From positions 13,808 to 77,807 of the forward strand of contig CAZWJT010000007.1 in the NCBI GenBank assembly GCA_964634935.1: DNA of 64,000 bases, written 5' to 3'. The notes under the pieces were generated by a model. It was not told the origin of the DNA and did no database searches. It was given only the letters and a program-made list of their open reading frames with translations. This DNA comes from an uncultured Planctomycetia bacterium (GTDB lineage Bacteria; Omnitrophota; Gorgyraeia; Duberdicusellales; Duberdicusellaceae). Positions 27,808 through 52,006 of this stretch are shown here, piece after piece. Position 1 is the first letter of the stretch; every line of letters begins with the position of its first letter. Both the position numbers and the translations under genes were made by a program.

Positions 27808-27809
27808 GT

Positions 27810-30147: not shown

Positions 30148-30201
30148 GAGAGATGGCGGGATTGCTATGCGCAAGCTCCATTGATACTTTAGGGGCATAG
30201 T

Positions 30202-34528: not shown

Positions 34529-34584
34529 GAATGGAGTTCTTTTCTTTCCCGGTTTTTCTTTTATAATAGGGAACACTGTAATGT

Positions 34585-35277: not shown

Positions 35278-35278
35278 T

Positions 35279-36379
35279 GTGAAGATTCCTGTTTTTTTCG
35301 AGCGTCTATACCGATATTGCTCATTCGGCACACGGCTTCTTCAGGCAAATTTTCTCTCGGGGACAGTTCCCTATAAGATAAACCTGATTGTTACTTACCA
35401 TTGTAATTCTCGCTGCAAGCATTGCGCTATTTGGCGCAAGGAACATGTTCCCGAACTCAGTGTTTTGGATTACCAAAAAATGCTCTCTCAGGTATCTGCG
35501 CATTGGATTGATGTAAGCGGGGGAGAGATAGTATTGAGAAAGGATATTCGGGATATTTTTCAGATTTGTCTCAATACTCAAAAAAGATTGGCACTCCTTC
35601 ATTTTCCCACGAATGGGTCTTTTCCTGAAAAAGTTTGGGAATTGTCACATGATATCGTGCGTATATTTCCCGGTAAACTTGTGGTGAGCGTAAGCCTTGA
35701 TGGGCCGCGTGGTCTGCACAACCAACTGCGGGGAACGGATTCCTGGGAGAAGGCGGTTGAAACCTTCAAACGTCTTCGGGAAATTACCAAGAAAAACTTT
35801 GGTGTTTTTTTCGGTTATACGATTTCTGAGGAAAATGCTTCCGTTCTCGAAGAAACTTTCCGTGATTTACGGCGGTATATTCCCAAGATTTCCTACAGAG
35901 ATATCCATATTAATATTGATCATATTAGTCCGCACTACTACGCAAATTCTTTCCGGAAGATCGACCGGGAAAAAGTATTGGCAGGCGTTTATCATTATGC
36001 ACGGAAGAGAACGTACGGTTTTGGGGTTTTTGAGTATCTTGAAAGAGCCTATCACCGTTCGATCGCGGGATATTTGAATCTGGGAAAGACCCCGCGTCAA
36101 TGCGTAGCTCTCCGTGATAGCGTCTTTATTGATCCATATGGTAATGTTTTTCCCTGTAGTATTTACGCTGAGAATTTAGGAAATATCAAGGAATATGATT
36201 TTAGTATTTCCAAGATATTGAGCTTGGAATCTGCGGGGCACCTGCGCAAAGAAATCCAAGGCGGTAAGTGTCCTCAGTGCTGGACGCCTTGTGAAGCGTA
36301 TCCAATGATTCTCGGATCTTTTTTTAAAAAACACAATCATTTCTTGGTGCAACGTAAAAGTAAAAATAATGCGTGCTAA
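35279..36379 (+). CDS. Radical SAM protein with C-terminal SPASM-like Cys cluster
   Basis: CNSRCKHC CxxxCxxC motif near the N-terminus; C-terminal CPQCWTPCEAYP auxiliary-cluster motif. Confidence 0.7.
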   Translation: MKIPVFFERLYRYCSFGTRLLQANFLSGTVPYKINLIVTYHCNSRCKHCAIWRKEHVPELSVLDYQKMLSQVSAHWIDVSGGEIVLRKDIRDIFQICLNTQKRLALLHFPTNGSFPEKVWELSHDIVRIFPGKLVVSVSLDGPRGLHNQLRGTDSWEKAVETFKRLREITKKNFGVFFGYTISEENASVLEETFRDLRRYIPKISYRDIHINIDHISPHYYANSFRKIDREKVLAGVYHYARKRTYGFGVFEYLERAYHRSIAGYLNLGKTPRQCVALRDSVFIDPYGNVFPCSIYAENLGNIKEYDFSISKILSLESAGHLRKEIQGGKCPQCWTPCEAYPMILGSFFKKHNHFLVQRKSKNNAC

Positions 36380-37445
36380 ATACGTTCGATTATTTTCCAA
36401 ATGCCTTCAGCAGAAACAATATGCGTATTTGTTCCGTCAGCCCTTTAAGCTTATTCAGCTTTTTTTTACCTACCATGGAGTTAAGCTTTCAAAAAAGAGG
36501 AAACCTTTTGTGGCCACCTTGATTCCAACGTATCGGTGCAACAGTAGCTGCCCGAAGTGCGTAAAAAAGGGGATGCACGATGTTATGCAGGAGATGACTA
36601 CCGAACAATTGAAGCGCGTCATCGATGAACTTCAGGCATTAGGTATTTCCGCGATTGATTTTACCGGGGGAGAACCGCTTCTCCGGGACGATCTCACGGA
36701 GCTTCTGCGGCATACCTCTGGCAAGGGGCTCCTCAGTCACTTAAACACAAACGGCTACTTGCTTACTCCGGAGCGTGTCCAGGATATAGTACAGAGCGGG
36801 GTAAACTCTATTAATGTTTCATTAGATAGTGTATCGCCGGAAAAGATGGAAGTTTTAACGGGTATCCCCGGAGCTTTGGCGAAAATTCAGGAAGGTTTAA
36901 TTTCTCTTCTTGCTGCTCGCGCGATGCGTCGCTCGCTTCTGGAAATAACAATTGTCACTGTACTGAGTAAAGAGAATCGGGATGAGCTTGAAGCGATTAT
37001 TGATTTTGCTCGAAAGATTGGAGTTGATGGGGTCAGTATCAATCCCTATCATGCGTTTCCTCGTCCCTTATCCGGCATACGGGATGATTCTTTTCAGGAG
37101 ACGATTGGGAAGCTGATGCGCTGGAAGAACCAAGGAGGGTTGCTTGAGAATAGCAAAGAGTATTTTTTTCTTTTACATAAGTTTTTTAAAGGTGAGCCGT
37201 TCCCCTTGCGCTGTTCAGCGGCTGATTCATACCTTATTATTGATACGTATCGGAGAATATTTCCTTGTTTCTGCTGGTTAGAGACGGGAGGCAGATCGAT
37301 TTCTTTTACAGATTCAATTCGCCAAGCAATCCAGTCAGAGGAATATCGGCAGATACTTGTCTCTGCGCGGTTGTGCCGTGCGTGCTATTGGAATTGTCAT
37401 GCGGAACTCAGTATTTTTCTTAACCCTTTTTTCCGTTATGTCTAA
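36369..37445 (+). CDS. Radical SAM protein with C-terminal SPASM-like Cys cluster (paralog)
   Basis: CNSSCPKC motif, GGEPLL SAM-binding motif, C-terminal CRACYWNCHAE; overlaps the previous gene. Confidence 0.7.
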   Translation: MRAKYVRLFSKCLQQKQYAYLFRQPFKLIQLFFTYHGVKLSKKRKPFVATLIPTYRCNSSCPKCVKKGMHDVMQEMTTEQLKRVIDELQALGISAIDFTGGEPLLRDDLTELLRHTSGKGLLSHLNTNGYLLTPERVQDIVQSGVNSINVSLDSVSPEKMEVLTGIPGALAKIQEGLISLLAARAMRRSLLEITIVTVLSKENRDELEAIIDFARKIGVDGVSINPYHAFPRPLSGIRDDSFQETIGKLMRWKNQGGLLENSKEYFFLLHKFFKGEPFPLRCSAADSYLIIDTYRRIFPCFCWLETGGRSISFTDSIRQAIQSEEYRQILVSARLCRACYWNCHAELSIFLNPFFRYV

Positions 37446-39096
37446 ACAGATAAAGGGTATACATCTTTTCATCATTCTTTTCAGCGCCCTTGTGATTCGT
37501 GTTTTTTTTCTCTCCGCATCGCATTTCCATATTCATTCTGATCATGCTACCTGGGCATTGATGGCTTTAGATTTTCTAAAAGGTAATTTTTATTTTTTTC
37601 CTGCCGGGCAAACGTTTGGCTCGCCGCTGGAGCCATTCTGTATGATTCCTTTTTTCAAGATAATCGGCAGCAATCACTATGCGGTGCGCGCCCTTGGCTT
37701 CGGAATTTCCATCGGCATTATTCTGGCGCATTATGGAATGATTCGCACGATGTTCCATAGAAGAATCGCCTTGCTCTCAGCGTGGTATTTTGCGCTTGGT
37801 CCTCAATTTCTGATCGAATGGACTTTAGAGGTTAGGGGAGGGAGGAGTCCAACGCTTATCTTTGGTCCGCTTATTCTGCTGGCGGGGTTTTTTATTTTAC
37901 GCTGTCCGGAACAAAAAAAACGGAGGCTTATCTTTCTTTATGCGTGGTGTGGATTTATTTCAGGGGTAGGGTATACAAACGACATGCTTGCTTTTACCTA
38001 TATAGGTACGTTTCTCCTTTGCGCATGTTTGCAGGATTTTCGAAGGATGGTAAAGCATTTAGTTTTTTTCCTGTTTCCGTTCTTTATCTTATATCTTCCG
38101 CATTTTTTCTACAATATAACCACAGGGGCCTCTACTTATGCGCATTTTTTCGGAATGATGAAATTATACAATCTTAAGTTTGTGCCGTTACGCATATTCC
38201 ATATGCTTGCAGAATCGTTTCCAGTGCTGATTGGCGCGCGCATCAGCCATTCATTCCAAGATTTCTTTCCCTTTCTCTCTATTCCGGTATCAGTTCTTTT
38301 TGTGGTCCTTTTTTTCCGGATGGGCAAGCTGTTTTTTGCGCATATCAGCAGGATTACTCCATGGACCAAAATCCCGCGGGCAAGAATTACTCAATGTTCA
38401 AAGCTGCTGGTTCTCAAAAATAATTTTATTGATGCGGTGCGGAATGCTGACCCCGTGGCGTATGCTTTTGTATTTTTGATTGTGCATTGCGGATTTTTCT
38501 TGGCTAGTAATTCCGGTGATCTCATTACGCACAGTCCAAGGTATCTTTTGCCGCTTTACAGTGTTCTTGTTCCGCTTTTTTTCTTTTTTCTTTTTCAGTT
38601 CCGGGCCAGGATCATTCGTTTTTTAGTTTGTGGGTTTGTTTTTTTGCTTAATCTCGGAAGCATTTTTGTGTATGCTCAAGAATGTTCTCTCCCGGGGACT
38701 CAGCGCGGCCAATGGACCGCTGATTTTCTTGATCAGAAGATGATTACCGAAACTTTACTGAGTCGGGATATACATCAGCTCTATGCCGATTATTGGATTT
38801 GCTACACAGTCGGATTTCTTTCTCAAGGACAAATTTTGGTTAGCCCTCTCTGTGGTCCAAACCGGGAAGATCGAAGGCCCTGGGATACAAAAACTATCCA
38901 GCAGACCAAGGTTCCAAAAGCGGTTATTTTTTCAATGGAAGCGGCTTACGAAGAATCCGGGTTTTTGGATTTTATCCGGAATATTCAAACACCGTATGTA
39001 CGGATCGATTTTGGGCGATTTCATGTTTATTTAACCAAAGCAATCATTTGTTTTTCAGAAAAGGGGGTGCCGTATGTCTGTGGAACGGACGATTGA
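37438..39096 (+). CDS. GT-C fold membrane glycosyltransferase (ArnT/PMT-like)
   Basis: Polytopic (more than 10 TM) protein with a C-terminal soluble domain; start at ATG 37438 overlapping the upstream stop. Confidence 0.5.
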   Translation: MSKQIKGIHLFIILFSALVIRVFFLSASHFHIHSDHATWALMALDFLKGNFYFFPAGQTFGSPLEPFCMIPFFKIIGSNHYAVRALGFGISIGIILAHYGMIRTMFHRRIALLSAWYFALGPQFLIEWTLEVRGGRSPTLIFGPLILLAGFFILRCPEQKKRRLIFLYAWCGFISGVGYTNDMLAFTYIGTFLLCACLQDFRRMVKHLVFFLFPFFILYLPHFFYNITTGASTYAHFFGMMKLYNLKFVPLRIFHMLAESFPVLIGARISHSFQDFFPFLSIPVSVLFVVLFFRMGKLFFAHISRITPWTKIPRARITQCSKLLVLKNNFIDAVRNADPVAYAFVFLIVHCGFFLASNSGDLITHSPRYLLPLYSVLVPLFFFFLFQFRARIIRFLVCGFVFLLNLGSIFVYAQECSLPGTQRGQWTADFLDQKMITETLLSRDIHQLYADYWICYTVGFLSQGQILVSPLCGPNREDRRPWDTKTIQQTKVPKAVIFSMEAAYEESGFLDFIRNIQTPYVRIDFGRFHVYLTKAIICFSEKGVPYVCGTDD

Positions 39097-40387
39097 CACA
39101 GGCTATTCTTTTTACCGCGTGCTTCTTACTACGCTTTTGATCCTTTTTTCTTGTGCCCGTTATTACGATACCATGGTTTCTTCGGTGCTTCCTGCTGAGT
39201 GTGGTGATTTTGCTGCCGTGTACGCTGGCATCAAGAATATGTCGTCCGGCGTGAGCCCTTATTCGGCTTCCGGGGGTACCTTTTATACTGGAAAATCATT
39301 TCTTACTACTACCTATAATTATCTTCCCTTTTACGGAACAATGCTTTGGTTTTTCAATAATTTTGAATATCGGACCGCACGGTATCTTTGGATCTTCTTC
39401 AATCAATTCTTTTTAGGGGTTTTACTCTATCTTTTGTTTCGCCTTTTGCGTGTTTATAAGAAGAATGCCGATTTTTTTGATTTTGCAATACTCTTTGCGC
39501 TGTTGTTTAACTTTCATCCGTTGATAACAGGTCTTACGATGGGGCAGAACCACATTTTGCTTTTGGTGATTTTTTTAAGTATGTTTCTTGCCGCATTGAG
39601 CGGCCGCGATTTTATCGCAGGTATCGTGCTTGCGCTTCTTATTTTGATTAAGATCAATTTTGGTTTTTTTCTTGTTTTTTTCCTGCTTAAGAAGCGCTGG
39701 AAAATTCTCTGGGGAACTTGTGTCGGTTGTGTCCTTGGGGTCATCGGATCATGCCTTTTAGTCAGCCCGCAATTTTATCTTGATTTTTTTAGTGACATGC
39801 TTCGGCGCATCGAACGGAATAAAGTAATTTTTTATGATCCGAATACACAGGCGTTATCGAGTTTTCTGGTGCGGGTCTTTTGGAGCAATGAATATGGAAG
39901 TATTTTTTCATTGCCGTTCTGGTTTGTAAAGCTTCTTGTCACGGTAAGCTGTCTTTGCGTTTGTGGGGTGACATTTTTCTTGGTATCATTGCGCCGGACT
40001 ATTCTCTCGCGCCAAGTAAGAGATTTCCTGGAGTGTTCGTATGTGCTTTTTTGCGTACTACTCGTTTCTCCCTATGCCTGGCGTCATTACTTTTTCTGGC
40101 TTCTTTTTTTGTTTCCGGTTGGATTCTATATTTTTCGGGGTACCGGGAATCCGGATAAAACAACATTCTTGGTGCTTTTTTTTGGTTACTCTTTTGTCGC
40201 CGTCAATCCGTTCTATCTGCTTGTTGATTTCCTAAAAGACATTCTTGGTCCGGAGATGTTTTATTCTTCGGCAATCATGGCAAAGCCTTGGACGCTTCTG
40301 CTTGATTACGGATATTTTTATATTTTAGGGATGCTTTGGCTGTATTTCAGTTTCTTTTTATTCCATGCGCGGGATCGTAACCGATAA
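39074..40387 (+). CDS. GT87/DUF2029-like polyprenol-phosphate-dependent membrane glycosyltransferase
   Basis: Polytopic membrane protein; …LILIKINFGFF… region resembles DUF2029/GT87. Overlaps both neighbours. Confidence 0.5.
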   Translation: MSVERTIDTGYSFYRVLLTTLLILFSCARYYDTMVSSVLPAECGDFAAVYAGIKNMSSGVSPYSASGGTFYTGKSFLTTTYNYLPFYGTMLWFFNNFEYRTARYLWIFFNQFFLGVLLYLLFRLLRVYKKNADFFDFAILFALLFNFHPLITGLTMGQNHILLLVIFLSMFLAALSGRDFIAGIVLALLILIKINFGFFLVFFLLKKRWKILWGTCVGCVLGVIGSCLLVSPQFYLDFFSDMLRRIERNKVIFYDPNTQALSSFLVRVFWSNEYGSIFSLPFWFVKLLVTVSCLCVCGVTFFLVSLRRTILSRQVRDFLECSYVLFCVLLVSPYAWRHYFFWLLFLFPVGFYIFRGTGNPDKTTFLVLFFGYSFVAVNPFYLLVDFLKDILGPEMFYSSAIMAKPWTLLLDYGYFYILGMLWLYFSFFLFHARDRNR

Positions 40388-42125
40388 AGCCCAAATCATT
40401 GTGGTAACCCGATTATTTGTATTTTGGTTTCAGAAGTTACATGAAAGACCAGGATGGTTTGTTGCCGCGTTTCTTTTTATTTTTTTGAGTATCTGCATAA
40501 GTAGTATGCTGCAAACTTCCGCCACTTTTGATGAAACTTTTCATATCACCGAAGGGGTCTACCCGTTTACGAATGCCCAGCTTTCGGTTATCTTTGAGCA
40601 TCCGCCATTAGTGCGCACCTATGCGGCACTTCCCTTGATTTTTTTCCAGAAACAGCTGCAGCTTCAATGGCCGCAGGAAAAACACAGTTATCAGAAATTC
40701 TGTGATGAGTTTGTTTGGGGTGCGAACAAAAAGAATAGCCTTTTGATCATTTTCTTAGGCCGGGTTATGATCGTTTCGCTTGGAGTTTTGCTCGGTTTTT
40801 TTATTTTCAAGTTTGCTGCGCTTCTTTTTGGATCCCAAGCTGGCATTTTTGCGCTTTTTTTATATGTGTTTTGTCCAAATTGTATTGCTCACAGCCGGTT
40901 GATTACTACTGATATCGGAGGAGCCTGTTTTTCATTCATTGCGTTGTATTTTTTCTGGAAATTCTTATTTCGGAGATTCTCAACAAATATTTTTTTATTT
41001 GGCCTTTTTCTCGGGTTTGCCTGTTCAGCAAAATATTCAGCGCTTTTCCTTTATCCTTTTGCTTGCGGAGGGGTTATGTTTTTTACGGCGAGAGGAAGCC
41101 GCAAAAAATATTTTTCCGGACTACTTGGGGCTTTTCTGGTCAGTTTTTTTGTTATCTGGGCAAATTATGGTTTTCAGCTGAAAACGCTTACTACAAAAGC
41201 AGAGAGGCCGCATTTTGCCTTGGACAATCTTCCAATCCCGGAATTCGGAAAAACTCTTGCGTATGGAGTCGTCGAAAACCTGTATTTTCCCTGGGATTTT
41301 TTCAAGGGGATTTACGGTTTATCCAAGCATAACCTTGGAGGGCATCCGAGCTATATCCGAGGAATATACAGCCGGAGCTCGGTTTGGTACTATTATCTCT
41401 ATGCGTTGTTTTTGAAAACTCCCATACCGGTGCTTGTTCTTTTTCTCTGGGTTTTTTGGATTACGGTAAAGCGTTGGCGCGATCAACCAAAGCTTTTTCT
41501 GCTCTATGCGCTGGGTGTTTTTTTCGGAGTATCGTTTTTAAGTAAACAGCATGTTGGTATCCGTCATGTTATTCTGCTCTATCCCATACTGTTTGTTTTT
41601 ATCAGCAGTTTGATCCGGAGTCTGGTCTGTCGCGTGCATTCTTTAAAAATTGCAAAGATCATTGTGCTCATTGTCCTGTGCGGCTGGTATGTTTTTGAAA
41701 GTATGACCCATTGGCCTGATTATTTAAGTTACTTTAATAACGTTATCGGGAAAAGAGAAAATGCCTATCGGCATCTTGTTGATTCCAATCTTGACTGGGG
41801 GCAAGGATTATTCCAGTTAAAAAAATTCATGGACAGGGAAAATATCTCTAGAATAAAGCTTGTTTACTTTGGAACAGCCCGGCCCGAAGCCTATGGTATT
41901 AACTATGAACTTCTTCCTTCGACTTTCGCGCAGCATTTGGTCCGGGTCGGACAGGCATGTCCGGGCGATTTTGGATCTATCCCTGCGCGTGGTATTCTCG
42001 CGGTTAGTGCAACGGATTTAACGGGTGTTTATATCGGCGGCCCCGGAACATATTCCTGGCTTAGAAACTATACTCCTTGGGAACATTTATCCGGCTCGAT
42101 ATTCATCTATAGGATTCCAAATTAA
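40365..42125 (+). CDS. GT-C fold glycosyltransferase, PMT_2/ArnT family (protein O-mannosyltransferase-like)
   Basis: First-loop TFDETFHITEG matches the PMT/ArnT catalytic DE motif; more than 10 TM helices and a C-terminal soluble domain. Confidence 0.65.
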   Translation: MRGIVTDKAQIIVVTRLFVFWFQKLHERPGWFVAAFLFIFLSICISSMLQTSATFDETFHITEGVYPFTNAQLSVIFEHPPLVRTYAALPLIFFQKQLQLQWPQEKHSYQKFCDEFVWGANKKNSLLIIFLGRVMIVSLGVLLGFFIFKFAALLFGSQAGIFALFLYVFCPNCIAHSRLITTDIGGACFSFIALYFFWKFLFRRFSTNIFLFGLFLGFACSAKYSALFLYPFACGGVMFFTARGSRKKYFSGLLGAFLVSFFVIWANYGFQLKTLTTKAERPHFALDNLPIPEFGKTLAYGVVENLYFPWDFFKGIYGLSKHNLGGHPSYIRGIYSRSSVWYYYLYALFLKTPIPVLVLFLWVFWITVKRWRDQPKLFLLYALGVFFGVSFLSKQHVGIRHVILLYPILFVFISSLIRSLVCRVHSLKIAKIIVLIVLCGWYVFESMTHWPDYLSYFNNVIGKRENAYRHLVDSNLDWGQGLFQLKKFMDRENISRIKLVYFGTARPEAYGINYELLPSTFAQHLVRVGQACPGDFGSIPARGILAVSATDLTGVYIGGPGTYSWLRNYTPWEHLSGSIFIYRIPN

Positions 42126-42236: not shown

Positions 42237-43829
42237 ATGAGGCAGTTCATAAAAATAGTATGGTTCTCTATTCTACTCTTAGAGGTATCTTTTGTTTATT
42301 GCGAGAACAGCATCTCTGTTGATTCATACTTTCCTATTCCCGAACAGCAGTATCGAAACCTTAAAGCCGAACAGTTTTCTTCCGTAAATACTGAGGTGCG
42401 GATTGCTTTCCAGAAATATGACCCGTCCGGCCAGCTTGTTTTCCAGGCATCTCGTAATCCGCTCGCTAAGAACGCGACGAATTTTCCCATCGCAGGCTCC
42501 ATACCTTTTACGAGCGACGGCAATGTCTATTCGGCTTTATTCAAGCCGCTTACCATTGCTGATCTTACCCAGCCAAACCAGCCGCTCAATGTGCCATTTG
42601 GTAACAAGGAAATTATTACGAATGCCATCGAGAATGTCGAGTTTCTAAGCGATGGGAGCACGAATCCCGATGGTTCAGTCCGGGGGATTTCGACGTGGCC
42701 GGGGATGGGAACATGCGAAGAGGTAAACGGGCAATTTTATATCGGTATGTACCAGGCAAACTGCGGTGACTCGGCGTACCTTGCTTGGCTCAATGAATCA
42801 TCAGGTTTTTATGTCGCAGCCGGAGTGGGTATGGGCTGGGCAAGTCCTTTGTCAGCGCTTGGTATGGGAGTAGTCGGCATCAAGATGGGCACGATTGATT
42901 ATAAATGCTGCAGGCTTCAGGAGAACCGTCCGATTCCTCAAGGAGAAAATCTTCAGGATTGCCGTCCCTTGGCAAATCAGGTGCAGCAGATTTCCGATCA
43001 GATTAAAGGTTATTACGATGGATACTATGATGCATTTAATGATGCATGGAACCGAGGCTGTTTCCGGACAACAAATCCTCCGGCATTGATCAAAACATAT
43101 ACGCATGGGGCGCGTACCGGGCAGTGGAGAGGGTGTGACCGGTATACTTGGGCGTGTCAAACCCCGCAATGCCAGGGCGCTTGCACAACCTGTAATACGT
43201 GTACCTACACGGAAACCATTACCCATACAGGTCCAGATGCGTCGTGTGGATGTGCAGCGTATAATTCATGTGATTATCCGTGTACGCAGTGGGCTTGGGG
43301 AGAAAATGATTGTGGTAATTGTGGCAATTATTGTTCTCTTTATTGGTGTAACTGGTGTTGGCAGGGGATTTTCTATCTACCGAATTGTGCGGTCTGCGGT
43401 ACGGGTGCTTGCGCACAGTGGTCATGCAACAGCTGTTGGTATTCGTATACAGGAACATGCAATGGTCCGCATTCTTCCTGTGGCTGTGGTACCTATAATT
43501 CCTGTTCGCATAGTCATACTTCAACGGTTACCAATGCGAACTGCACGCAATGCGGGTGTGCGGCGTATTCCCAGGTGTGCTGTCCAAATCCAGGAGAAGG
43601 AAATGTTACCAATGGTTGGAATTGGACGATTACGGATGATGGCTGCGGTGTTGGAAATAAGCCGCAGTGCGAAGCTGATATCGCGATTCTCGACGGAAAT
43701 ACAAGTGGTCTTGACGCTCTGAAACAGGCATATTTTGATGCAAAGCAAGCTCTTTGTAATTGTGCCTGTCAGGGCAGTCCTCAAATGGCGTCTTGCGTTA
43801 ATTCTTGTTTTGAGGGGATGAGGGAATAA
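42237..43829 (+). CDS. Cassette A, type-1: secreted Cys-rich protein (~530 aa), unknown family
   Basis: Signal peptide, then SVDSYFPIPE motif; conserved WPGMGTCE, GVGMGWASPLSA, YKCCRL blocks; C-terminal region packed with CGC / YNSC repeats. Confidence 0.65.
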   Translation: MRQFIKIVWFSILLLEVSFVYCENSISVDSYFPIPEQQYRNLKAEQFSSVNTEVRIAFQKYDPSGQLVFQASRNPLAKNATNFPIAGSIPFTSDGNVYSALFKPLTIADLTQPNQPLNVPFGNKEIITNAIENVEFLSDGSTNPDGSVRGISTWPGMGTCEEVNGQFYIGMYQANCGDSAYLAWLNESSGFYVAAGVGMGWASPLSALGMGVVGIKMGTIDYKCCRLQENRPIPQGENLQDCRPLANQVQQISDQIKGYYDGYYDAFNDAWNRGCFRTTNPPALIKTYTHGARTGQWRGCDRYTWACQTPQCQGACTTCNTCTYTETITHTGPDASCGCAAYNSCDYPCTQWAWGENDCGNCGNYCSLYWCNWCWQGIFYLPNCAVCGTGACAQWSCNSCWYSYTGTCNGPHSSCGCGTYNSCSHSHTSTVTNANCTQCGCAAYSQVCCPNPGEGNVTNGWNWTITDDGCGVGNKPQCEADIAILDGNTSGLDALKQAYFDAKQALCNCACQGSPQMASCVNSCFEGMRE

Positions 43830-43832
43830 AAG

Positions 43833-44801
43833 ATGGGTATACAAAAAAATATTTTTTCTGTTTTTTTCTGCACTCTTGGCATTGTAACTTTTTTCGCATA
43901 TGCACAGGAAGCGCAAACCATTCGGGTAACTACATATTATCCGTCGCCAAATGTAAAAACATTGTCGCTGATTGTTCAGGATATGGAAGTTCGCAAAACC
44001 ACCGAAACGAGCATGGTGCCGCGTTTAGAGATCCCTGTAGGTGGTGTTTTTTATGTCGACAGCCCGGTTGCAGGGAGTGCTTTTCGTATTGATAGCGCTG
44101 GGGTTTCTTTCTCCGAGAATGCTTATGTTCATGAGACGATAGGATACCAGTGTGTTCGAAGCAATAATAACAGGGTTTGCAGCGGTAATGTTACCACGGG
44201 AAATTTAACGCCGCGGTCTTTTAATGGGAATGCTTCATATCTTCGTTTGAATGGTATCGCGTTGCATTCAATGCCGGTATTGGTTTTAAATGAAGAGGGG
44301 AATACCAGAATTCATAATGATTACCAGGGGATGCAGAACGCAACAAATACTTTGACCAATACCTATCCGCTTGCGCAGGATGCCTGTGCTATGTGCGAGA
44401 TGTGCGAACAGAAAGAAACGACGGCTTTAAAGAATGCGTGTTATACAGCGGAAAACTGCAATGCAGGATACATCAATGCCGACAGGAATTTTGATCTCGC
44501 GGCATGTTTAAATACGGCAAAAACCATTGCCACAAATACCCTTGGAACGCTTACCTATACCAACGCGCAAGGTCGTTTTTCGAATAAAAAAGGTATTTTC
44601 CGGATGACGAAGACTGGCGAGTATGCCTTTGGCGGTGGAGTAGGCGTGGGCATTGGCGGGCACTTTGGAGCTGGGGTGGGAGCTCTTTTCGGCACAAATA
44701 CAAAACCTGCTCCAGGCTGGCTTGGTTTTATTCCGACAGGTGATCCGGCAAAAAGTTTTGGTTATAAAACATTTCAGTATCAAACAAAGGATCCGCAGTG
44801 A
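43833..44801 (+). CDS. Cassette A, type-2: secreted protein (~320 aa), Gly-rich C-terminus, unknown family
   Basis: Signal peptide, RVTTYYPSPN motif, CAMCEMCE block, GGGVGVGIGGHFGAGVGALFG and YKTFQY near the C-terminus. Confidence 0.65.
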   Translation: MGIQKNIFSVFFCTLGIVTFFAYAQEAQTIRVTTYYPSPNVKTLSLIVQDMEVRKTTETSMVPRLEIPVGGVFYVDSPVAGSAFRIDSAGVSFSENAYVHETIGYQCVRSNNNRVCSGNVTTGNLTPRSFNGNASYLRLNGIALHSMPVLVLNEEGNTRIHNDYQGMQNATNTLTNTYPLAQDACAMCEMCEQKETTALKNACYTAENCNAGYINADRNFDLAACLNTAKTIATNTLGTLTYTNAQGRFSNKKGIFRMTKTGEYAFGGGVGVGIGGHFGAGVGALFGTNTKPAPGWLGFIPTGDPAKSFGYKTFQYQTKDPQ

Positions 44802-45421
44802 GAGTAAGTTTAGTGTCAAAAATTTTGTTTTTCATAGTATGCTGCATAGTGAGCGCGGTTCATCCGTGCGGGATGGTTTTGGCGAATGACGAAACAGTCA
44901 ATATTTCGACTTTTTATCCTTCTCCCAAAGGGATTTATGACCGTATCGATGTGGTGAATGCCGGTGGAATTTCTGGAAGCGCTCTTATTGGTAATACCCT
45001 GAAGATGATTAATACCGACCCAGCGGGAACCGTGGTTGATGGTCCGGGAACAGATATTGATAAGGATGGTAATATTAAGTCCAAGGCTTTTGCTTTTTTG
45101 GGGCAGAAATACTATACGCCGACTCTCAGGGCTCGCTCTTTAACCGTGACCCAGAATTCTCAGTGGCGGATTCCATCTTGGCAGGTGGAAGTGGGCGCAT
45201 TAGATTGGGGAGTTGTTCTTGCGAGCTTAGCCTTTAGCATCGATCAGACTGCAGAGTGTCCAAATGGCCTGGTGAATTCGATTACTAATTTAAGTGGTAT
45301 CTCACCCTTTTGTTTGGGAGTACCTGTGTCATTAAGCCCGCCGGTAGCAATAGTGCTGTGCGTGGGCCAGGAAAAGTTTATTCTTGGGTATAGCTGTTTG
45401 AATTTATATGCTCAAAATTAA
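44798..45421 (+). CDS. Cassette A, type-3: secreted protein (~205 aa), unknown family
   Basis: GTGA overlap with the previous gene; signal peptide, ISTFYPSPKGIYD motif, GQKYYTPTLR, LSGISPFCLGVP blocks. Confidence 0.6.
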   Translation: MRVSLVSKILFFIVCCIVSAVHPCGMVLANDETVNISTFYPSPKGIYDRIDVVNAGGISGSALIGNTLKMINTDPAGTVVDGPGTDIDKDGNIKSKAFAFLGQKYYTPTLRARSLTVTQNSQWRIPSWQVEVGALDWGVVLASLAFSIDQTAECPNGLVNSITNLSGISPFCLGVPVSLSPPVAIVLCVGQEKFILGYSCLNLYAQN

Positions 45422-45464
45422 GAAAAAAATCACAAGCAGGAAAAATCTGATATAATATAACCAT

Positions 45465-47030
45465 ATGCGGAGCAAGATAACCAGTGTGATTCTCCGAATC
45501 TATCAAAGAGGGGGTATACTTGGTTTTGTTTGTTTGATGCTTTTCTGTTCTTTGTCTTCCGCAAGCACCCTCACCGTCGATACATATTTTCCAGCTCCAG
45601 AAGTACGTTATCGTAAAGTTTTAGCCCAAGAGGTAGTTTCTAAACGCACTGAAATTGATGGTCGTCTTATCAAATATGATGAATTAGATGGAACAAAGAT
45701 TGTTCTTGAGATCGCAACAACCCCTCTGACGAAAGCCGCTTTTTCTGCGGAAGCAAAAACATTCACCAGCGATTCTGATATTGTCGTATCTCTTTTTAAA
45801 CCGCTTACCGTGCCCGCTTCTTCGCTCAATAATGCCAAGATTTATGTAAACGCAGTTGAAGATTTGATTTCTTTTAGCGATGGAGCAAACCGTATTGGAA
45901 TATGGCCCGGCCTTGGGTCCTGTGAACGGCAAAGTTTTCTTTTTCTTGGTTATTACACCGTTGATTGCGGAGATGGCGCGTATCTCGCCTATATTCAAGA
46001 GAGTTCAGGTATTTATTTTGCTATCGGCGGAGGTATGGGTTGGGCGAGTCCTCTTTCAGCGATAGGAACTGGATTCGGCATAAAATCCGGAAGCGTTGAT
46101 TATATCTGTTGCCGGTTGGATCAAAATGCGGTTATTCCTATTGGAAGCGGTAATATGAGTTGCGGAGTAGAAGAGACTGAGGTAAAAGACGCAAAGACCA
46201 GAGTAGATATAAAGCAGCAAGAATATAATGCGGCTTTTGATGCGGCAAAAGCCGCTGGCTGTTTTCGAGAGATGGGAGTAGGCGGTACAAAATACCATAC
46301 AAATTGGCCCGCTCCTGGAGTTGATGTTTCTTATGAGAAGACCTGGTTAGACGGCACAAACGTGGAACAGGAGTTTGGCAGATGGCTTGGTTGCAGTATG
46401 TATACCTGGGAATGCCGCGCACCAGCTGATGCGATATGTAACGGTAGTTGCAACACGTATTGTACATGTCAGAATTCTGCTTGTGGCTGTTGTGCTTCGG
46501 TGTGTACAGCGTATTGCGCTTGTTCAAGCTGTGGCTGTTGTTCTTCCACATGTACTTCGTATTGTTCTTGTGCTACTGCTGCTTGCGGCTGCGCGACTAA
46601 AGACCCAAAAACAGGAGCATGCACATCGTATAACACATGTCAGAATTCTGCTTGTGGCTGTTGTGCTTCGGTGTGTACTGGGTATTGCGCTTGTTCAAGC
46701 TGTGGCTGCTGTGCTACTGCCTGCACTTCGTATTGTTCCTGCGCTACTTCTGCTTGTGGCTGTTGTGTCTATAACAAAGTTTGCTGTGCTAATCCTGGAG
46801 AAGGGGTTGGAGGAAGCGGTTGGCGGTGGTACGAAGACCAGAACGGCGCATGTAACCGCGCTAACTGCAATAGCTTGATTTCTACTCTTTCTTCTGCAGG
46901 GCAGGCTTTGCGAGATGAAAAGGCAAACTACGAAAATAAGAAACGTTCTTATTGTACTTGTGTTTGTAACGCGCTGGGCAACCCCGGCGAACCGTGCATC
47001 AGTACTTGTATGGTGAGCAATCAGTTATAG
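45465..47030 (+). CDS. Cassette B, type-1: secreted Cys-rich protein (521 aa) with internal 57-aa tandem repeat
   Basis: Signal peptide, TVDTYFPAPE motif, WPGLGSCE, GGGMGWASPLSA, YICCRL. Two CGCC-rich 57-aa repeats; VCCANPGEG near the C-terminus as in A1. Confidence 0.65.
   Translation: MRSKITSVILRIYQRGGILGFVCLMLFCSLSSASTLTVDTYFPAPEVRYRKVLAQEVVSKRTEIDGRLIKYDELDGTKIVLEIATTPLTKAAFSAEAKTFTSDSDIVVSLFKPLTVPASSLNNAKIYVNAVEDLISFSDGANRIGIWPGLGSCERQSFLFLGYYTVDCGDGAYLAYIQESSGIYFAIGGGMGWASPLSAIGTGFGIKSGSVDYICCRLDQNAVIPIGSGNMSCGVEETEVKDAKTRVDIKQQEYNAAFDAAKAAGCFREMGVGGTKYHTNWPAPGVDVSYEKTWLDGTNVEQEFGRWLGCSMYTWECRAPADAICNGSCNTYCTCQNSACGCCASVCTAYCACSSCGCCSSTCTSYCSCATAACGCATKDPKTGACTSYNTCQNSACGCCASVCTGYCACSSCGCCATACTSYCSCATSACGCCVYNKVCCANPGEGVGGSGWRWYEDQNGACNRANCNSLISTLSSAGQALRDEKANYENKKRSYCTCVCNALGNPGEPCISTCMVSNQL
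46455..46796 (+). repeat. In-frame tandem direct repeat, 171-bp period, two copies at about 90% identity
   Basis: TGTCAGAATTCTGCTTGTGGCTGTTGTGCTTCGGTGTGTAC… recurs at 46467 and 46638; it encodes the Cys-rich TCQNSACGCCASVCT.YCACSSCGCC… units of protein B1. Confidence 0.85.
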
Positions 47031-47033
47031 CGT

Positions 47034-47933
47034 ATGAAAAAAGAATATTTGCGCTTTATTGTTCTTTTCTGGTGGTGCATTTTTTTCTCTGGTTACGCTT
47101 TTTCTCAAAACCAAGAGATAAGGATGAGCACGTACTATCCTACGCCTAATCTTGATGCAAACCAGTTTTTTGTTGATGAAGTTGATATCGAGAAAACAAC
47201 TCCAAAGACAACCCCGCCTTCATTTCGCATTGAGCAGGGCGGAGAGTTATTTGTAGGTACGGATAACGCAAACCGGATTCTTACGATCAATAATGCCGGA
47301 GTTTCCGCAAACGGAAATTCCTATGTTGAAGAAACCATAAGCTATGAGTGTGATCTTGCAACCGGCATATGTTCCGGAAGTTTAGCAACAAAAGATATGG
47401 AGCCGCGAGCCTATGGCGGCCAGTCTCCTTACATACGGTTAAGCGGTATTGCGCTCTATAGTATGCCGAGGTTGGTTGAAGTCGCGAATGATTGGACCTC
47501 AATGACCGACGGGGGAATTTTGAATGCGGTCAATGATGCGAATAATTACCTGCGCAATGTTTATCCAACAACCCGGCAAGGTTGTTTTACCTGCGAAGCC
47601 TGTGAATTGGAGAGTGATCCAGTAGCCTGTTTTACGGCGCATGGGTGCGGGTATGTGGCAGGGGAAGCTTTTGATTTAACGTTGTGCCTTACCGACACAT
47701 CCAATTTGGCAGGAGGTCATTTTGACGCAATGCTTGAAGATCCCGCGGCAAATCCCGGATATTCGCGGGAACGAGGCGTGCATGGGTTGACTAAGAATGG
47801 CGAATGGGCTGCTGGGATTGGTATTGGCGGTGTTTTAGGCGGGCATTTTGGCATTGGAGGCGCTATTCTTTTCGGTGGTGGAACACCGATGAATCGAAGC
47901 TATAACACCTTTGAATATAATTATAAAGAATAA
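47034..47933 (+). CDS. Cassette B, type-2: secreted protein (299 aa), Gly-rich C-terminus
   Basis: Signal peptide, RMSTYYPTPN motif, CFTCEACE block, GIGIGGVLGGHFGIGGAILFGGG and YNTFEY. Confidence 0.65.
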   Translation: MKKEYLRFIVLFWWCIFFSGYAFSQNQEIRMSTYYPTPNLDANQFFVDEVDIEKTTPKTTPPSFRIEQGGELFVGTDNANRILTINNAGVSANGNSYVEETISYECDLATGICSGSLATKDMEPRAYGGQSPYIRLSGIALYSMPRLVEVANDWTSMTDGGILNAVNDANNYLRNVYPTTRQGCFTCEACELESDPVACFTAHGCGYVAGEAFDLTLCLTDTSNLAGGHFDAMLEDPAANPGYSRERGVHGLTKNGEWAAGIGIGGVLGGHFGIGGAILFGGGTPMNRSYNTFEYNYKE

Positions 47934-47934
47934 G

Positions 47935-48633
47935 ATGAAATCGCCATTGAATCAAAAGATGCTCTTTCGGGTGCTTGCGCTTTTGGCATTCCTTTCTATG
48001 GCCCATACTAGTTCTTTTTCTCAAGGAACTGATGAGGAAGTCATCATTTCGCCCTTTTACCCGTCACCGAAGGGAATTTATGATAATCTGGAAGTCGTCA
48101 CTGATTTAATATTGGATCCTGGCCAAGACGGACGGGTTGGCGAAGGGGTATTGAAAATTGCCGGAGGAGCGCCTACTCCGTCAGGACAAGGATTAAACGC
48201 TCCAGGGATTTTGATGACAACCCCTACTTTTCCGGGAGAAAAGATAACCAGGATTAAAGAAGATGGTTCTCTGCGCGCCTCAGGTTTCCAATTTATTGGC
48301 GATAAATACTATACGAAAACATTAAGAGCCGGAGAGCTTGTGCTTACTGACAGCACGGGGGCATGGAAAGTTCCTACGCTCCAGATTGATAACGCTGAAT
48401 GGCTTGGAGGCTGGAGTGATCCCCGGTGGGGTGTCGGGTTTGGAAGTTCTACGAGTTTTGATTGTAACGACGGAGGTAATTTAGGATTTATCGGAGGCGT
48501 CCAAAACCTCAGCGGAATTATGCCGTGGTGTATCGGTATTCCTATTCCTCCAGATTTTTGTATAGCTGTTCTTTTGTGCGCGGGAGAAGAGCAGTTTATT
48601 ATGAGCTATAAATGCATTCGTCCTCAGTATTAA
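47935..48633 (+). CDS. Cassette B, type-3: secreted protein (~232 aa)
   Basis: Start set at ATG 47935, just after the B2 stop. Signal peptide, ISPFYPSPKGIYD motif, GDKYYTKTLR, LSGIMPWCIGIP. Confidence 0.6.
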   Translation: MKSPLNQKMLFRVLALLAFLSMAHTSSFSQGTDEEVIISPFYPSPKGIYDNLEVVTDLILDPGQDGRVGEGVLKIAGGAPTPSGQGLNAPGILMTTPTFPGEKITRIKEDGSLRASGFQFIGDKYYTKTLRAGELVLTDSTGAWKVPTLQIDNAEWLGGWSDPRWGVGFGSSTSFDCNDGGNLGFIGGVQNLSGIMPWCIGIPIPPDFCIAVLLCAGEEQFIMSYKCIRPQY

Positions 48634-48647
48634 AAAAGGAGAAAGAC

Positions 48648-49172
48648 ATGATCAAGAAAACCTTGTGGCTATTTCTGTTGACTTGTTCGTTTGGTTTTTC
48701 GTGTTTTGCGGTTTCTGATCCTATTGACATTAAAAATAATGTTCTTGATAAATTGGATATCCCTGTGTATCCTTCGATGCAATCGCCCGAGGCTTACGGG
48801 ATTTCGCTTAATTATACCCTGCAGGATACTTGCGTTGATTGCGTTATTTCTTTCTTTAAAACAGAACTCAAGAAAAAAGGCTGGAAGGTTGATGACGAAA
48901 AACTTGACCGAAGTTTTCAGGAGGCTTTTAGCAAGGTTCGCGGTCAGCTTGAGGGAATGCAAGGAAGTTATCCGCAGGGTTTTGATACGAAAACAGCAGA
49001 AGCGATACTTTCCGGGAAGAACGACAGTTACATTAAGGAACAAATTAAGAAAATGTCTCCAACGGTGATTGAGGCAAGAAGAGAAGAAGACGGGATCATT
49101 TGCCGTATTTTTATCCATGGAACTTCGGGGACCCAGGGAATGAAAATAACTTTAACGCTTTCTGCCCAATAA
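48648..49172 (+). CDS. Secreted hypothetical protein (174 aa) inserted between cassettes B and C
   Basis: Good SD AAAGGAGAAAG; signal peptide; lacks the (Y/F)(Y/F)P-x-P N-terminal motif of the cassette proteins. Confidence 0.5.
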   Translation: MIKKTLWLFLLTCSFGFSCFAVSDPIDIKNNVLDKLDIPVYPSMQSPEAYGISLNYTLQDTCVDCVISFFKTELKKKGWKVDDEKLDRSFQEAFSKVRGQLEGMQGSYPQGFDTKTAEAILSGKNDSYIKEQIKKMSPTVIEARREEDGIICRIFIHGTSGTQGMKITLTLSAQ

Positions 49173-49178
49173 TACTGA

Positions 49179-50558
49179 ATGCGGTTGACGCTTGACAGAT
49201 GCTCTAAAAAAACATCGTGCGGTGTTTTTTTAGGGCTTTTGTTCTTTGGGGTAGGTTTTTGCGGTTATACCGCCTATGCGGCAAACGATCTTACTGTCGA
49301 TACCTATTATCCCGCTCCAGCGTTAAATTACAAAGAAGCAAAGGCTCATGATTTTTCTTCACGCGATACTGAGGTAAAGAAGAAGATTGAGAAGCAAGAC
49401 CGGGCTTTTCTTGCTTCGGTTGATTCCCTGGATAAGAATCAATTTCCTACAGCTGGCGCAAAGGATTTTACAGACGCAGCTGATTCAATCTATATCGGAC
49501 TCTTCCGTGATTCTTCAAATGCATCCAATGTACGTCCTTTGCGCGTATTGAACGGAGCAGCGTTCGCCCCTACATCATCGCTCATTATCAATAAGGCGCG
49601 GCATGTATCGTATCTTACTGAAAACGGGGAAACAATGAGTATGTGGCCTGGATTAGGACGATGTGCTTCCCGTAGTATTTGGAAGCTCATTGCCGGATTC
49701 GCCCAGTGTGCCAGCGATGAATATCTCGCAGATTATTCGGAAAGTCCTGGTTTGTATCTTGGTGGTGGCGTAGGAAGCGCCAGCATGGGCAATATGGGTG
49801 GGGGAATTGGCTTTAAAATGTCGACGATTAACTATACCTGCTGTAAGTTGCGAGGAGATGAAGAGCCGGTAACCAGTATAGACGGATGTGTTACAAAACA
49901 AAATGACGCCGAGACAGCACGGCGTAATCTGGATCTTGCCAAATGCAGGTATATCCAAGCGATTCGTGATGCAAAAGCCGCAGGGTGTAATCACAGCAGA
50001 GATTTTGCTTGTTTCGGGAACAGTTGTCAAGATACAGGGGCGACCTGCACAAAGCGATTTGAAGATATGTCTATTAATGAAAACGCTTGTCCGTATTTAT
50101 TAAGCGGGCAACCTGTACCGTCGCCTCTACCGGCTGATTCAAGAATGCCCAGTCTTTTAGCTTTACTTGGGCTTATACCTTCAGAACCTCCCTCTATATG
50201 TTATGCAGGATGCACCGAATGTTCAACGTTCTGTTGTGGGTATGATTCAGCGGGGTTTTGTACCTCAACCTGCTGTAATTCTTGGGACGTCTGCAACGAG
50301 GCGGATTGTCAAAGTCGGATTGCAGATATAGACCAGAAAAAACAAGATATTGAGAATGCCCGGGCGCAGCTGAGGAATGTGCTCGAGGATTTATGTAATA
50401 CGTGCGTCTGCGGCCGCTGGGATGGTATTCGTTCTGAGATTGAAGCTTTCGTCCCTGGTTTGGATCTTGCCGGTTACATCGGTTCCTTGCTCAATCCGGG
50501 AGAATCTCTCTGTGATAATATGTGTAGTACTCAGATGCTTGACGCCGCGATACAATAA
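49179..50558 (+). CDS. Cassette C, type-1: secreted Cys-rich protein (459 aa)
   Basis: Signal peptide, TVDTYYPAPA motif, WPGLGRCA, YTCCKL, C-terminal LCNTCVCG as in A1/B1 (LCNCACQG / YCTCVCN). Confidence 0.65.
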   Translation: MRLTLDRCSKKTSCGVFLGLLFFGVGFCGYTAYAANDLTVDTYYPAPALNYKEAKAHDFSSRDTEVKKKIEKQDRAFLASVDSLDKNQFPTAGAKDFTDAADSIYIGLFRDSSNASNVRPLRVLNGAAFAPTSSLIINKARHVSYLTENGETMSMWPGLGRCASRSIWKLIAGFAQCASDEYLADYSESPGLYLGGGVGSASMGNMGGGIGFKMSTINYTCCKLRGDEEPVTSIDGCVTKQNDAETARRNLDLAKCRYIQAIRDAKAAGCNHSRDFACFGNSCQDTGATCTKRFEDMSINENACPYLLSGQPVPSPLPADSRMPSLLALLGLIPSEPPSICYAGCTECSTFCCGYDSAGFCTSTCCNSWDVCNEADCQSRIADIDQKKQDIENARAQLRNVLEDLCNTCVCGRWDGIRSEIEAFVPGLDLAGYIGSLLNPGESLCDNMCSTQMLDAAIQ

Positions 50559-50571
50559 TGGTGGCATAGTT

Positions 50572-51405
50572 ATGAAAATGAACGTTCAAAAAAAAGTAAG
50601 TATCCTCAAGTGCTTTCTCTATTGTTTTTTAGTTATTATTTCTGGTAGCGCGTACGCTGAAGGACAAGAAGTGCAGATGACTACTTTTTATCCGACGCCA
50701 AACGCGGTAACCAAGAATTTCATCGTTGATATTCTTCATATCGAAGATACGACGGGGGTTCCTGGCCCGGTTTTTACCATTACCACGGAAAGTGGAGTTG
50801 ACGGCTGGCTTAAGTTACGAGGAACAAATAGCTCAGGTGTTTTAACAGATGTTCTTGAAATAAATAATCTGGGGCTTGTTTTTCGCAAAAATGCGTACAG
50901 TGATGAAACCAGGGCTTATCCTTCAGTCCAACAACCCGGGATACTGGAACTACGACAATTTGGAACAGGGTCAGATTCTACTCCTGCTATTGAACTCAGA
51001 GGTATCCCTTTGACGCATACTCCGGAACTTGTTGTTTCTGTAAACCCATTCCGCAATAATTTTAATCCATTTAGTGATACTTTTTTTACACAGTATGATG
51101 ATCTGCAAAACGGTTGTTTATCCGCGGGGGGCGATCCCGAAACTTGCTTACAACTTTTAACTCCAATAGGCCGAGCAAGTTTTGACGTGATCACTGCTCC
51201 GTATGCGATTCCGGCATCAGAAAAATATTCTTCGCGGAAAGCGCTTTTCCTCTTGAACCAAACTCCAGAAACTGTTTTTGGGGTTGGGATATATTGTGGC
51301 ACAGGGAATGGCTGGGGTCCGGGTGCGGGTATACTTTTTGGGTTTGGAGGCGGCACAAACGCGCTCTATAAAACATTTAAGTACAGCGTGTATACGGGGA
51401 ATTAA
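50572..51405 (+). CDS. Cassette C, type-2: secreted protein (~277 aa)
   Basis: Start set at ATG 50572; the track ORF from 50377 overlaps C1 and is rejected. Signal peptide, QMTTFYPTPN, G-rich GILFGFGGG and YKTFKY. Confidence 0.6.
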   Translation: MKMNVQKKVSILKCFLYCFLVIISGSAYAEGQEVQMTTFYPTPNAVTKNFIVDILHIEDTTGVPGPVFTITTESGVDGWLKLRGTNSSGVLTDVLEINNLGLVFRKNAYSDETRAYPSVQQPGILELRQFGTGSDSTPAIELRGIPLTHTPELVVSVNPFRNNFNPFSDTFFTQYDDLQNGCLSAGGDPETCLQLLTPIGRASFDVITAPYAIPASEKYSSRKALFLLNQTPETVFGVGIYCGTGNGWGPGAGILFGFGGGTNALYKTFKYSVYTGN

Positions 51406-51406
51406 A

Positions 51407-52006
51407 ATGAGCATGAAAGTCGTTCAACAGTTCTGTATCGTAGCCGTCATTTTTTCTTTACAGGCGATTGTATCTGCCGCGGATGAAACGATACAACTTA
51501 CGCCGTTTTATCCTTCGCCGAAAGGTATCTATAATAGCGTACGCACCACTGAACTGACGACGGTTCAGGATAGTTTGCTGTTATCACAAGATGCGGAATT
51601 AAAATATCATAACGGGAGTTCTTCTCTCAACAACGACAGATTTCTGACAAATCGGCTTTCCTTCAATGGAGAAAAGTACTATACTCCGATACTGAAGACG
51701 CAGATTTTGGATGCGTCTGATATTCTTCCGGCGACAGGCGACTGGAAAGTTCCGCGACCAAGTATTAATTTGCCTTCCATTCCTGCTCTTGCGTTGGGGG
51801 CTTTTACCGGCACGGTCGTGTGCGGTCAAAGCGAGGTGATTAACAGCGTTATTTCAATAAGTACGGCTGTCGGTTTTTGTGTCCCGATTCCTATCGGCGG
51901 CATGGGAGGAACGATGCCAGTTATCTGTCTCGGCCGAGAGGACTTGAAGCTTTTTGGTAGCTGTATGAATACGGATTTAAGTGAAACAGGAATTACCGCT
52001 TTTTAA
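51407..52006 (+). CDS. Cassette C, type-3: secreted protein (~199 aa)
   Basis: Start at ATG 51407, 1 nt after the C2 stop. Signal peptide, LTPFYPSPKGIYN, GEKYYTPILK, VICLG. Confidence 0.6.
   Translation: MSMKVVQQFCIVAVIFSLQAIVSAADETIQLTPFYPSPKGIYNSVRTTELTTVQDSLLLSQDAELKYHNGSSSLNNDRFLTNRLSFNGEKYYTPILKTQILDASDILPATGDWKVPRPSINLPSIPALALGAFTGTVVCGQSEVINSVISISTAVGFCVPIPIGGMGGTMPVICLGREDLKLFGSCMNTDLSETGITAF

Follow-up and report, generated by a model that had tools for sequence, protein, structure and literature searches.

Short N-terminal tags that are common to different proteins and serve in assembly or targeting are already known from pilins, TasA/TapA fibres, BclA-type exosporium proteins, curli and TonB boxes. 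In the chaperone-usher pilins (Pap and Fim), several subunits of one operon carry a short amphipathic β-strand at the mature N-terminus, which is used there for subunit joining. The TasA/TapA fibres of Bacillus and the archaeal bundling pili and threads consist of Sec-exported subunits that assemble through an N-terminal strand without chaperone or usher, and the minor subunit has the strand of the major one. In BclA, BclB and BetA of the Bacillus cereus group, a short conserved N-terminal motif stands on differing proteins, including a trimeric fibre, and docks onto a common cysteine-rich basal layer. TonB boxes have an acidic residue and then a strand of the type T-h-x-h-T (h, hydrophobic; x, any residue) within about 10 mature residues, and act by β-augmentation onto one conserved partner, while the N22 segment of the curli subunits CsgA and CsgB, right after the signal peptide and common to the subunits of one secreted assembly, is read by CsgG. 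Here we describe a segment with likenesses to each of these, found on nine secreted proteins that are encoded by one gene cassette in a 64,000-nucleotide stretch of contig CAZWJT010000007.1 (the whole stretch is called the window below), from an uncultured bacterium of the Omnitrophota. We propose, with a probability of roughly 0.4, that the motif forms the centre of a portable, roughly 25-residue docking arm at the N-terminus; one conserved acceptor would read this arm and so join different subunits into a common extracytoplasmic structure.

The cassette consists of ten tightly packed genes on the + strand at 42237–52006, in the order A1-B1-C1-A2-B2-C2-X-A3-B3-C3, followed by uvrB. These form three triplets, in which A is large and Cys-rich (459–530 aa), B is of medium size with a Gly-rich C-terminus (277–322 aa) and C is small (199–232 aa); the tenth gene, X (174–186 aa), sits between triplets 2 and 3 and lacks the motif. 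A first-pass annotation, made from the letters of the window, had reported the motif hydrophobic-x-hydrophobic-(T/S/D)-(T/S/P)-(Y/F)-(Y/F)-P-x-P just after the signal-peptidase site of all nine A, B and C proteins, and we found all nine peptides that it quoted in place. As a regular expression, the motif gave exactly nine matches in the six-frame translation of the 64 kb, all of them in the cassette proteins, and it is also present on all nine remote homologues of A described below. The looser core [YF][YF]P.P added a single match, in a non-coding frame. About 0.00016 matches to the regular expression would be expected by chance per window proteome (an analytic estimate for its size and composition), and 2000 residue shuffles of that proteome gave none.

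With start codons chosen to fit the gene packing, each of the nine proteins shows a basic n-region, then a hydrophobic h-region and a signal-peptidase I site of the small-x-small type, the signal peptides being assigned by rule rather than by a trained predictor. The cleavage sites are AYA|Q, AFS|Q, AYA|E, VLA|N, SFS|Q, VSA|A, VYC|E, SSA|S or SAS|T, and AYA|A. The aromatic pair falls at mature residue 7–12 in every case, which places the motif outside the signal peptide. The motif is not a general property of secreted proteins of the window: it is missing from all of the roughly six others with signal-peptide-like N-termini, namely a GDSL lipase, a CsgG-like lipoprotein, a tetratricopeptide repeat (TPR) protein, a DUF3108 protein, a 189-aa protein and X. 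As DNA, these motifs (33 nt in each of the nine genes) are only 33–76% identical, and all four Pro codons, both Tyr codons and both Phe codons occur at invariant motif positions. Such varied codons at invariant positions indicate selection on the peptide and not a DNA repeat or gene conversion.

Alignment of the enlarged family profiles with hhalign gave similarity between A and B over 52 columns and between A and C over 49 columns, while the 99 columns of B against C were confident in their first part only. Judged by these profiles, the part common to A, B and C is the signal peptide plus about 25–30 mature residues, with the remainder unrelated; the earlier view of three otherwise unrelated families with a common N-terminal module is thus borne out, since similarity ends after the module. 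A sequence logo of 35 N-termini gave the consensus A|[DE][DE]-x-h-x-[IV]-[ST]-T-[YF][YF]-P-[SAT]-P-x-[GV]-x-Y-x-x-h-x-[AVT], with 3.2–4.1 bits at T, Y, Y, P and P and about 1 bit in the flanks (n=35). The module therefore exceeds the 10–12 residues first noticed, having an acidic cap before the strand (an acidic residue in 34/35 N-termini) and a second short strand after P-x-P. Both alternating positions of the first strand are hydrophobic in 32/35, so that the strand is amphipathic. The aromatic pair and the prolines are nearly invariant, and Phe freely replaces Tyr, which implies that the hydroxyl is not needed. The middle residue of P-x-P is mostly A, I, V or L in the A family. Past P-x-P there is no linker, and the family-specific conserved sequence follows directly (x-x-x-Y-[KR]-x-h..S..TEV in A; x-G-x-Y-D-x-h-x-V in C).

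A full HMMER search of 1.84 billion representatives with a profile of the A N-domain gave nine remote homologues from metagenomes and metagenome-assembled genomes of Omnitrophota (E 8e-45 to 4e-16). A signal peptide followed by the motif was present in 9/9, the motifs being ELSTFFPTP, VLVNTYFPAP, LVISAYHPVP, LTINTFYPLP, MTITTYYPAP, FSITTYYPVP, LNITAYFPSP, LSITTYYPAP and VTFSTYYPIP, and both motif prolines are among only 16–17 invariant columns of the A family. At the loci of these homologues (numbered here with an L) the order A-B-C is fixed, X is next in most, and A, B and C overlap by 1–4 bp or are separated by gaps of at most about 50 bp. Every B and C at these loci has the module, a few B proteins showing YYPSA or YYDAP for YYP-x-P. 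X is conserved, with 25–38% identity among lineages, and never has the module at any locus. The arrangement seen in the nine window proteins (signal peptide, acidic-h-x-h-[ST]-T-[YF][YF]-P-x-P within about 12 residues, and the order A, B, C (and X)) recurs in L004, L005/6, L007, L008, L009/10, L013/14, L015 and L016. Both L002, a locus without a cassette that is described below, and protein P0016 (MBP7216563.1) are attributed to Candidatus Omnitrophota/Omnitrophica at source, and the cassette and module appear, from the sequences retrieved, to be restricted to Omnitrophota-type sequences. As in the window, uvrB comes after the cassette in L005/L006; at other loci the neighbours vary (ribonucleotide reductase, CODH/ACS, polA and a MiaB-like gene).

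Several further features of the related loci were noted. The B gene of L010 (2361–3158; the same in L009) is split into open reading frames (ORFs) of 171 and 62 aa, as a frameshift, a pseudogene or an assembly error. A cyclophilin-type prolyl isomerase is encoded directly upstream of A in L009/L010 (L010 647–1195), and a SurA-like peptidyl-prolyl isomerase a few kb from the cassette in L004 (9293–10711); given the invariant prolines of the motif these isomerases are suggestive, and none was seen at the other loci. Small PilZ-domain proteins are encoded near cassettes in two lineages (L008 9048–9966 and L009 2629–3033).

The module is not confined to A, B and C. In L010, a contig from Hainich groundwater, two further carriers, g169 and g540, come after the cassette; they are paralogous across their first ~140 residues. 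In g540, tail-fibre-like repeats lead to a Peptidase_S74 domain ('chaperone of endosialidase', E 2e-16) at the C-terminus, a domain that marks homotrimeric fibres in which the N-termini are the attachment end. The match of the C profile to g540 is confined to 37 module columns. Furthermore, the loci L002 and L003, from another Omnitrophota lineage, encode solitary secreted carriers of 130/132 aa with the same arm and an unrelated remainder. This 130/132-aa protein was the sole find of genome- and metagenome-wide scans seeded on FYPSPKGI. By sequence comparison, the arm is thus borne by at least five unrelated passenger families. In L002 (10502–12901), a 103-aa ORF comes after the 130-aa carrier, and then genes for a radical-SAM/SPASM enzyme (477 aa) and for a small protein rich in Cys and Gly (141 aa); the group could be a peptide-maturation set. 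A link between this radical-SAM/SPASM gene and the one near the window cassette was considered and rejected, as the two have only generic 24–28% similarity.

The g540 protein resembles phage tail fibres and spikes with Peptidase_S74, in which a conserved N-terminal plug is combined with a variable rest. The carriers are unlike such fibres in having Sec signal peptides, the pattern TTYYPSPxGxY is not found in viral contigs, and the module is in no phage record. A phage origin is unsupported: the module pattern gave 0 matches in viral contigs, A, B, C and X had no PHROG match, and the only phage match in tblastn (E = 4) falls in a generic fibre repeat, LG[IV]GTT.P, outside the module.

Neither the arm nor the cassette, nor any of the four families (A, B, C and X), is described in the libraries and literature searched. 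Scans of all ten cassette proteins against Pfam, NCBIfam and PHROG gave nothing meaningful, and sequence profile searches of PDB with X, C, B and A gave no match below E 0.28. B2 and the C-family profile, used in word-indexed protein searches, retrieved nothing beyond the proteins of the window itself; a 44-column module-only profile had no match in a database of 5.8 billion, a size for which that profile is too short. In the literature searched there was no match for the peptide strings and nothing relevant on surface or secreted proteins of Omnitrophota.

The docking arm that we propose would work as follows. A, B and C would each be exported by Sec and cut by signal peptidase I. The mature protein would then begin with one or two acidic residues, a 7-residue amphipathic β-strand (h-x-h-[ST]-T-aromatic-aromatic), a rigid kink at Pro-x-Pro and then another short strand (x-[GV]-x-Y-x-x-h). 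All arms would be read by one conserved acceptor, probably via β-strand augmentation, and this reading would unite the three co-expressed subunits in one extracytoplasmic, probably disulfide-stabilised structure, which accessory passengers such as the trimeric tail-fibre-like protein would also enter. Candidates for the acceptor are X, an envelope protein encoded elsewhere, or a site built jointly by the subunits. The single acceptor is the firmest part of this proposal, being implied by the arm staying near-identical on unrelated proteins across distant lineages while the rest drifts to 25–40% identity. β-augmentation is suggested by the make-up of the arm, which is, as far as sequence can indicate, that of a β-augmentation ligand: an acidic cap is followed by an amphipathic strand with its aromatic pair, a stop at Pro-x-Pro and another short strand.

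A permanent, structural role of the arm would be favoured over transient docking by several features. A, B and C have a fixed order with overlapping or near-abutting genes. Within each of these families the paralogues of the window are 25–44% identical, with triplets 1 and 2 closer to each other and triplet 3 the outlier in all three families; this same pattern of divergence implies that the whole triplet was duplicated as a unit, long ago, which fits duplication of a functional A+B+C unit. In addition, the extra carriers cluster beside a cassette, one of them has the architecture of a homotrimeric fibre, where the N-terminus is normally the attachment end, and the arm continues directly into family-specific conserved sequence. 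At the loci of the remote homologues, the cassettes have no chaperone, usher, peptidase, glycosyltransferase or transporter gene as a constant neighbour, as would be expected if assembly needs little beyond the cassette itself. As a speculation, the three arms of A+B+C might mimic the three identical arms of a fibre trimer.

Four points weigh against this proposal. First, the AlphaFold2 models are poor (pLDDT, the predicted local distance difference test, was 35 for C1 from a 3-sequence alignment and 51 for the A N-domain from 12 sequences) and give no structural support; the N-terminal 38 residues of the A N-domain model are unstructured, which at pLDDT 51 carries no weight, and a Foldseek search with that model returned noise only (best E 1.4). 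Second, the candidate acceptor X is without recognisable fold or family and has the low identity among lineages given above. Third, carriers were sought mainly beside cassettes, so that their apparent clustering is partly ascertainment bias. Fourth, the constant short distance to the cleavage site and the sameness of the arm would, on sequence grounds, fit a transient export or sorting signal equally well.

In that alternative, which the first-pass annotation had also listed, a transport machine would read the arm transiently, and intermediates in the periplasm would thereby be carried onto the outer membrane or through it. Comparable signals are the 22 N-terminal residues by which the CsgG channel recognises CsgA/CsgB, the lipoprotein export signal of Bacteroidota and, in mirror image, the T9SS (type IX secretion system) C-terminal domain and PEP-CTERM. 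We regard an export signal as possible, if doubtful. The arm lies at the extreme mature N-terminus, 7–12 residues from the cleavage site, is near-identical on all of its diverse passengers, which implies one reader, and the cassette itself holds no obvious reader. Moreover, the window encodes a CsgG-family lipoprotein and a TPR protein at 9735–11653, a divergent AAA_22 (GspA/MshM-like) ATPase adjoins the cassette in L007 and L008, and L008 has a weak T2SSC-like protein (22.8 bits, under the Pfam cut-off). However, no transport gene is conserved beside the cassettes, and the CsgG-like gene (9735–10481) lies at a distance of ~30 kb and was seen at no other locus. The arm joins family-specific conserved sequence without a linker, unlike most cleavable or detachable signals, and known carriers are few and clustered. 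Unlike curli, the segment is unrelated in sequence to N22 and the proteins have no Curlin_rpt match. The CsgG-family lipoprotein itself (E 2e-39) lies between a secreted protein of 189 aa, which belongs to no known family, and the TPR protein, of 390 aa (9165–11653 together); this group could be an outer-membrane channel module.

An extension of both ideas, which we offer as a tentative possibility and would not rely on, is that the arm addresses its carriers to an envelope-assembly or sorting pathway that is new and confined to Omnitrophota, as an N-terminal equivalent of LPXTG, of PEP-CTERM or of the T9SS C-terminal domain. It would mount a heterotrimer-like A+B+C unit and plug-in fibres on the surface of ultra-small, possibly predatory or parasitic cells. 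If so, A, B, C and X would be a new surface organelle with no homologue among known pili, S-layers and secretion systems. The short tags recognised earlier (LPXTG, PEP-CTERM, the T9SS C-terminal domain and pilin extensions) each opened a whole pathway.

The likeness of the segment to a donor strand, also raised in the first-pass annotation, stands in part. The alternating strand is real in the sense that it is amphipathic (32/35), right after the signal peptide and followed by strand-ending prolines, and it is found on several subunits of one operon while X is without it, as a tip or terminal subunit would be; the families are also β-rich in the poor AlphaFold2 models. By this route, the N-terminal strand of one subunit would complete the fold of the next, and A, B and C would polymerise head to tail, as in chaperone-usher pili or the chaperone-free TasA/TapA fibres and archaeal bundling pili or threads. 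We think this polymerisation unlikely, since the same arm on all families and on further passengers points to one reader. A, B and C are unrelated beyond the arm, with no recognised pilin fold and no sequence family in common, and the same strand would have to fit a groove in each of three folds, whereas TasA and TapA are of one fold. The arm is also on a protein of the Peptidase_S74 trimeric-fibre type, which does not polymerise in this way. The donor-strand extensions of known systems are, to our knowledge, subunit-specific and without an invariant aromatic-aromatic-Pro-x-Pro, in contrast to the near-identical arms seen here.

The genes that known pili would bring with them were likewise missing. 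No Pfam or NCBIfam match to a PapD-like chaperone or an outer-membrane usher was obtained in the cassette, in the 51 window ORFs or in the called genes of L004–L016, and the cassettes gave no match to the TasA/Peptidase_M73 family and contained no gene for a SipW-type peptidase. The type V pilins FimA and Mfa1 do not fit, given the lack of a lipobox, no Cys being the first mature residue in any of the nine, and of any Pfam or NCBIfam match to the FimA/Mfa families at E <= 1. Membership in a chaperone-usher or type V pilus is therefore supported neither by the window cassette nor by the eight related loci. Type IV pilins and pseudopilins do not fit either, as there is no class III signal (G|F-T-L-x-E) and no Pfam or NCBIfam match to the prepilin methylation domain.

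For the two remaining described systems, the differences are as follows. BclA-type proteins assemble in the mother-cell cytoplasm without signal peptides, their motif is unrelated in sequence and they belong to a different phylum. TonB boxes have no YYPxP part, and identity with a TonB box was rejected: 0/35 N-termini matched a PROSITE-like pattern, and there was no Plug or TonB_dep_Rec match.

The motif has also been read as a Ser/Thr-Pro O-glycosylation acceptor, and here the genes upstream of the cassette have to be considered. As an O-glycosylation site or other sequon, the arm would be served by the GT-C (class C glycosyltransferase) enzymes encoded just upstream. The cassette lies directly behind a glycosylation island (26197–42125), an STT3-type oligosaccharyltransferase is encoded at 60318–62891, and Ser/Thr is frequent at three motif positions. 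Nevertheless, we consider modification very improbable as the function of the motif. Ser/Thr occupies the three candidate positions in 25/35, 30/35 and 23/35 N-termini and is invariant at none, the invariant residues being the aromatics, with Phe allowed, and Pro. Glycosyltransferases are missing beside the cassette in L004, L005, L008, L010, L013 and L016, so that the island is not conserved elsewhere. In the window, the last PMT_2 gene and A1 have a terminator-like hairpin and a promoter-like site between them, but a promoter and terminator scan of the region showed such sites to be at chance level.

The island itself encodes functions of envelope glycans: Wzz/GNVR, a tyrosine-kinase-like ATPase, a Wzy_C ligase/polymerase, three PMT_2 GT-C enzymes, GT87, GT9 and GT2. 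It also holds a B12-binding radical-SAM, a radical-SAM/SPASM and another radical-SAM gene. The product of 60318–62891, 857 aa long, contains an STT3 oligosaccharyltransferase domain (E 2e-28); it is an enzyme of the N-glycosylation type, encoded here by a bacterium, and its gene is preceded by a B12-binding radical-SAM gene (57984–59378).

An operon of four orphan secreted families, triplicated here and with one invariant tag on three of the four, is a strong candidate for a lineage-specific structure of the surface or envelope, in a phylum that is widespread, uncultivated, often ultra-small and thought to be attached to or to prey on other cells, and whose surface is almost undescribed. A hidden Markov model of the ~25-residue tag would be a handle with which to list the proteins of this structure in any genome and to seek the reading partner by phylogenetic profiling.

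The individual genes of the cassette, all on the + strand, are as follows; spacing between A, B and C genes in the window ranges from a 4-bp overlap up to a 13 bp gap. A1 (42237..43829, 530 aa) encodes a signal peptide, the module SISVDSYFPIP (42309–42341), a conserved β-rich N-domain and a Cys-rich C-terminal half. B1 (43833..44801, 322 aa) has a signal peptide, the module TIRVTTYYPSP (43917–43949) and a Gly-rich C-terminus. C1 (44798..45421, 207 aa) begins at a GTG with a 4-bp overlap with B1 and has a signal peptide and the module TVNISTFYPSP (44894–44926), then KGIYD. In the second triplet, A2 (45465..47030, 521 aa) has TLTVDTYFPAP (45567–45599), B2 (47034..47933, 299 aa) has EIRMSTYYPTP (47115–47147), and C2 (47935..48633, 232 aa, in an ORF that opens at 47911) has EVIISPFYPSP (48037–48069), then KGIYD. 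X (48612..49172) is an ORF of 186 aa with a probable start, MIKKTLW, at 48648 (174 aa); its product is secreted, and it is the conserved fourth cassette gene at other loci. A3 (49179..50558, 459 aa) has DLTVDTYYPAP (49287–49319). B3 (50572..51405) is 277 aa long from MKMNVQ, in an ORF that opens at 50377 and overlaps A3, and has EVQMTTFYPTP (50668–50700). C3 (51407..52006) is 199 aa long from MSMKVV, in an ORF that opens at 51278, and has TIQLTPFYPSP (51488–51520), then KGIYN. The starts of B3 (50572), C2 (47935) and C3 (51407) were chosen to fit the gene packing.

The public gene call for B2 (269 aa) begins at a Met inside the motif, so that the signal peptide is lost, and that for B3 (297 aa) begins at a GTG overlapping A3; with starts misplaced in this way, an automated survey would miss both signal peptide and motif. 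In A1 and A2 the C-terminal half (43071–43829 and 46272–47030) is extremely rich in Cys, with 36 and 46 Cys in 252 aa, respectively, and has CGCC/CxxC-like repeats. This Cys-rich region is much shorter or missing in most A orthologues, which indicates a lineage-specific expansion. Just past the X stop, within the first codons of A3, a hairpin with a 16-bp stem and a T-rich tail (49201–49236) could serve to terminate or attenuate transcription internally, between X and triplet 3, or could have arisen by chance.

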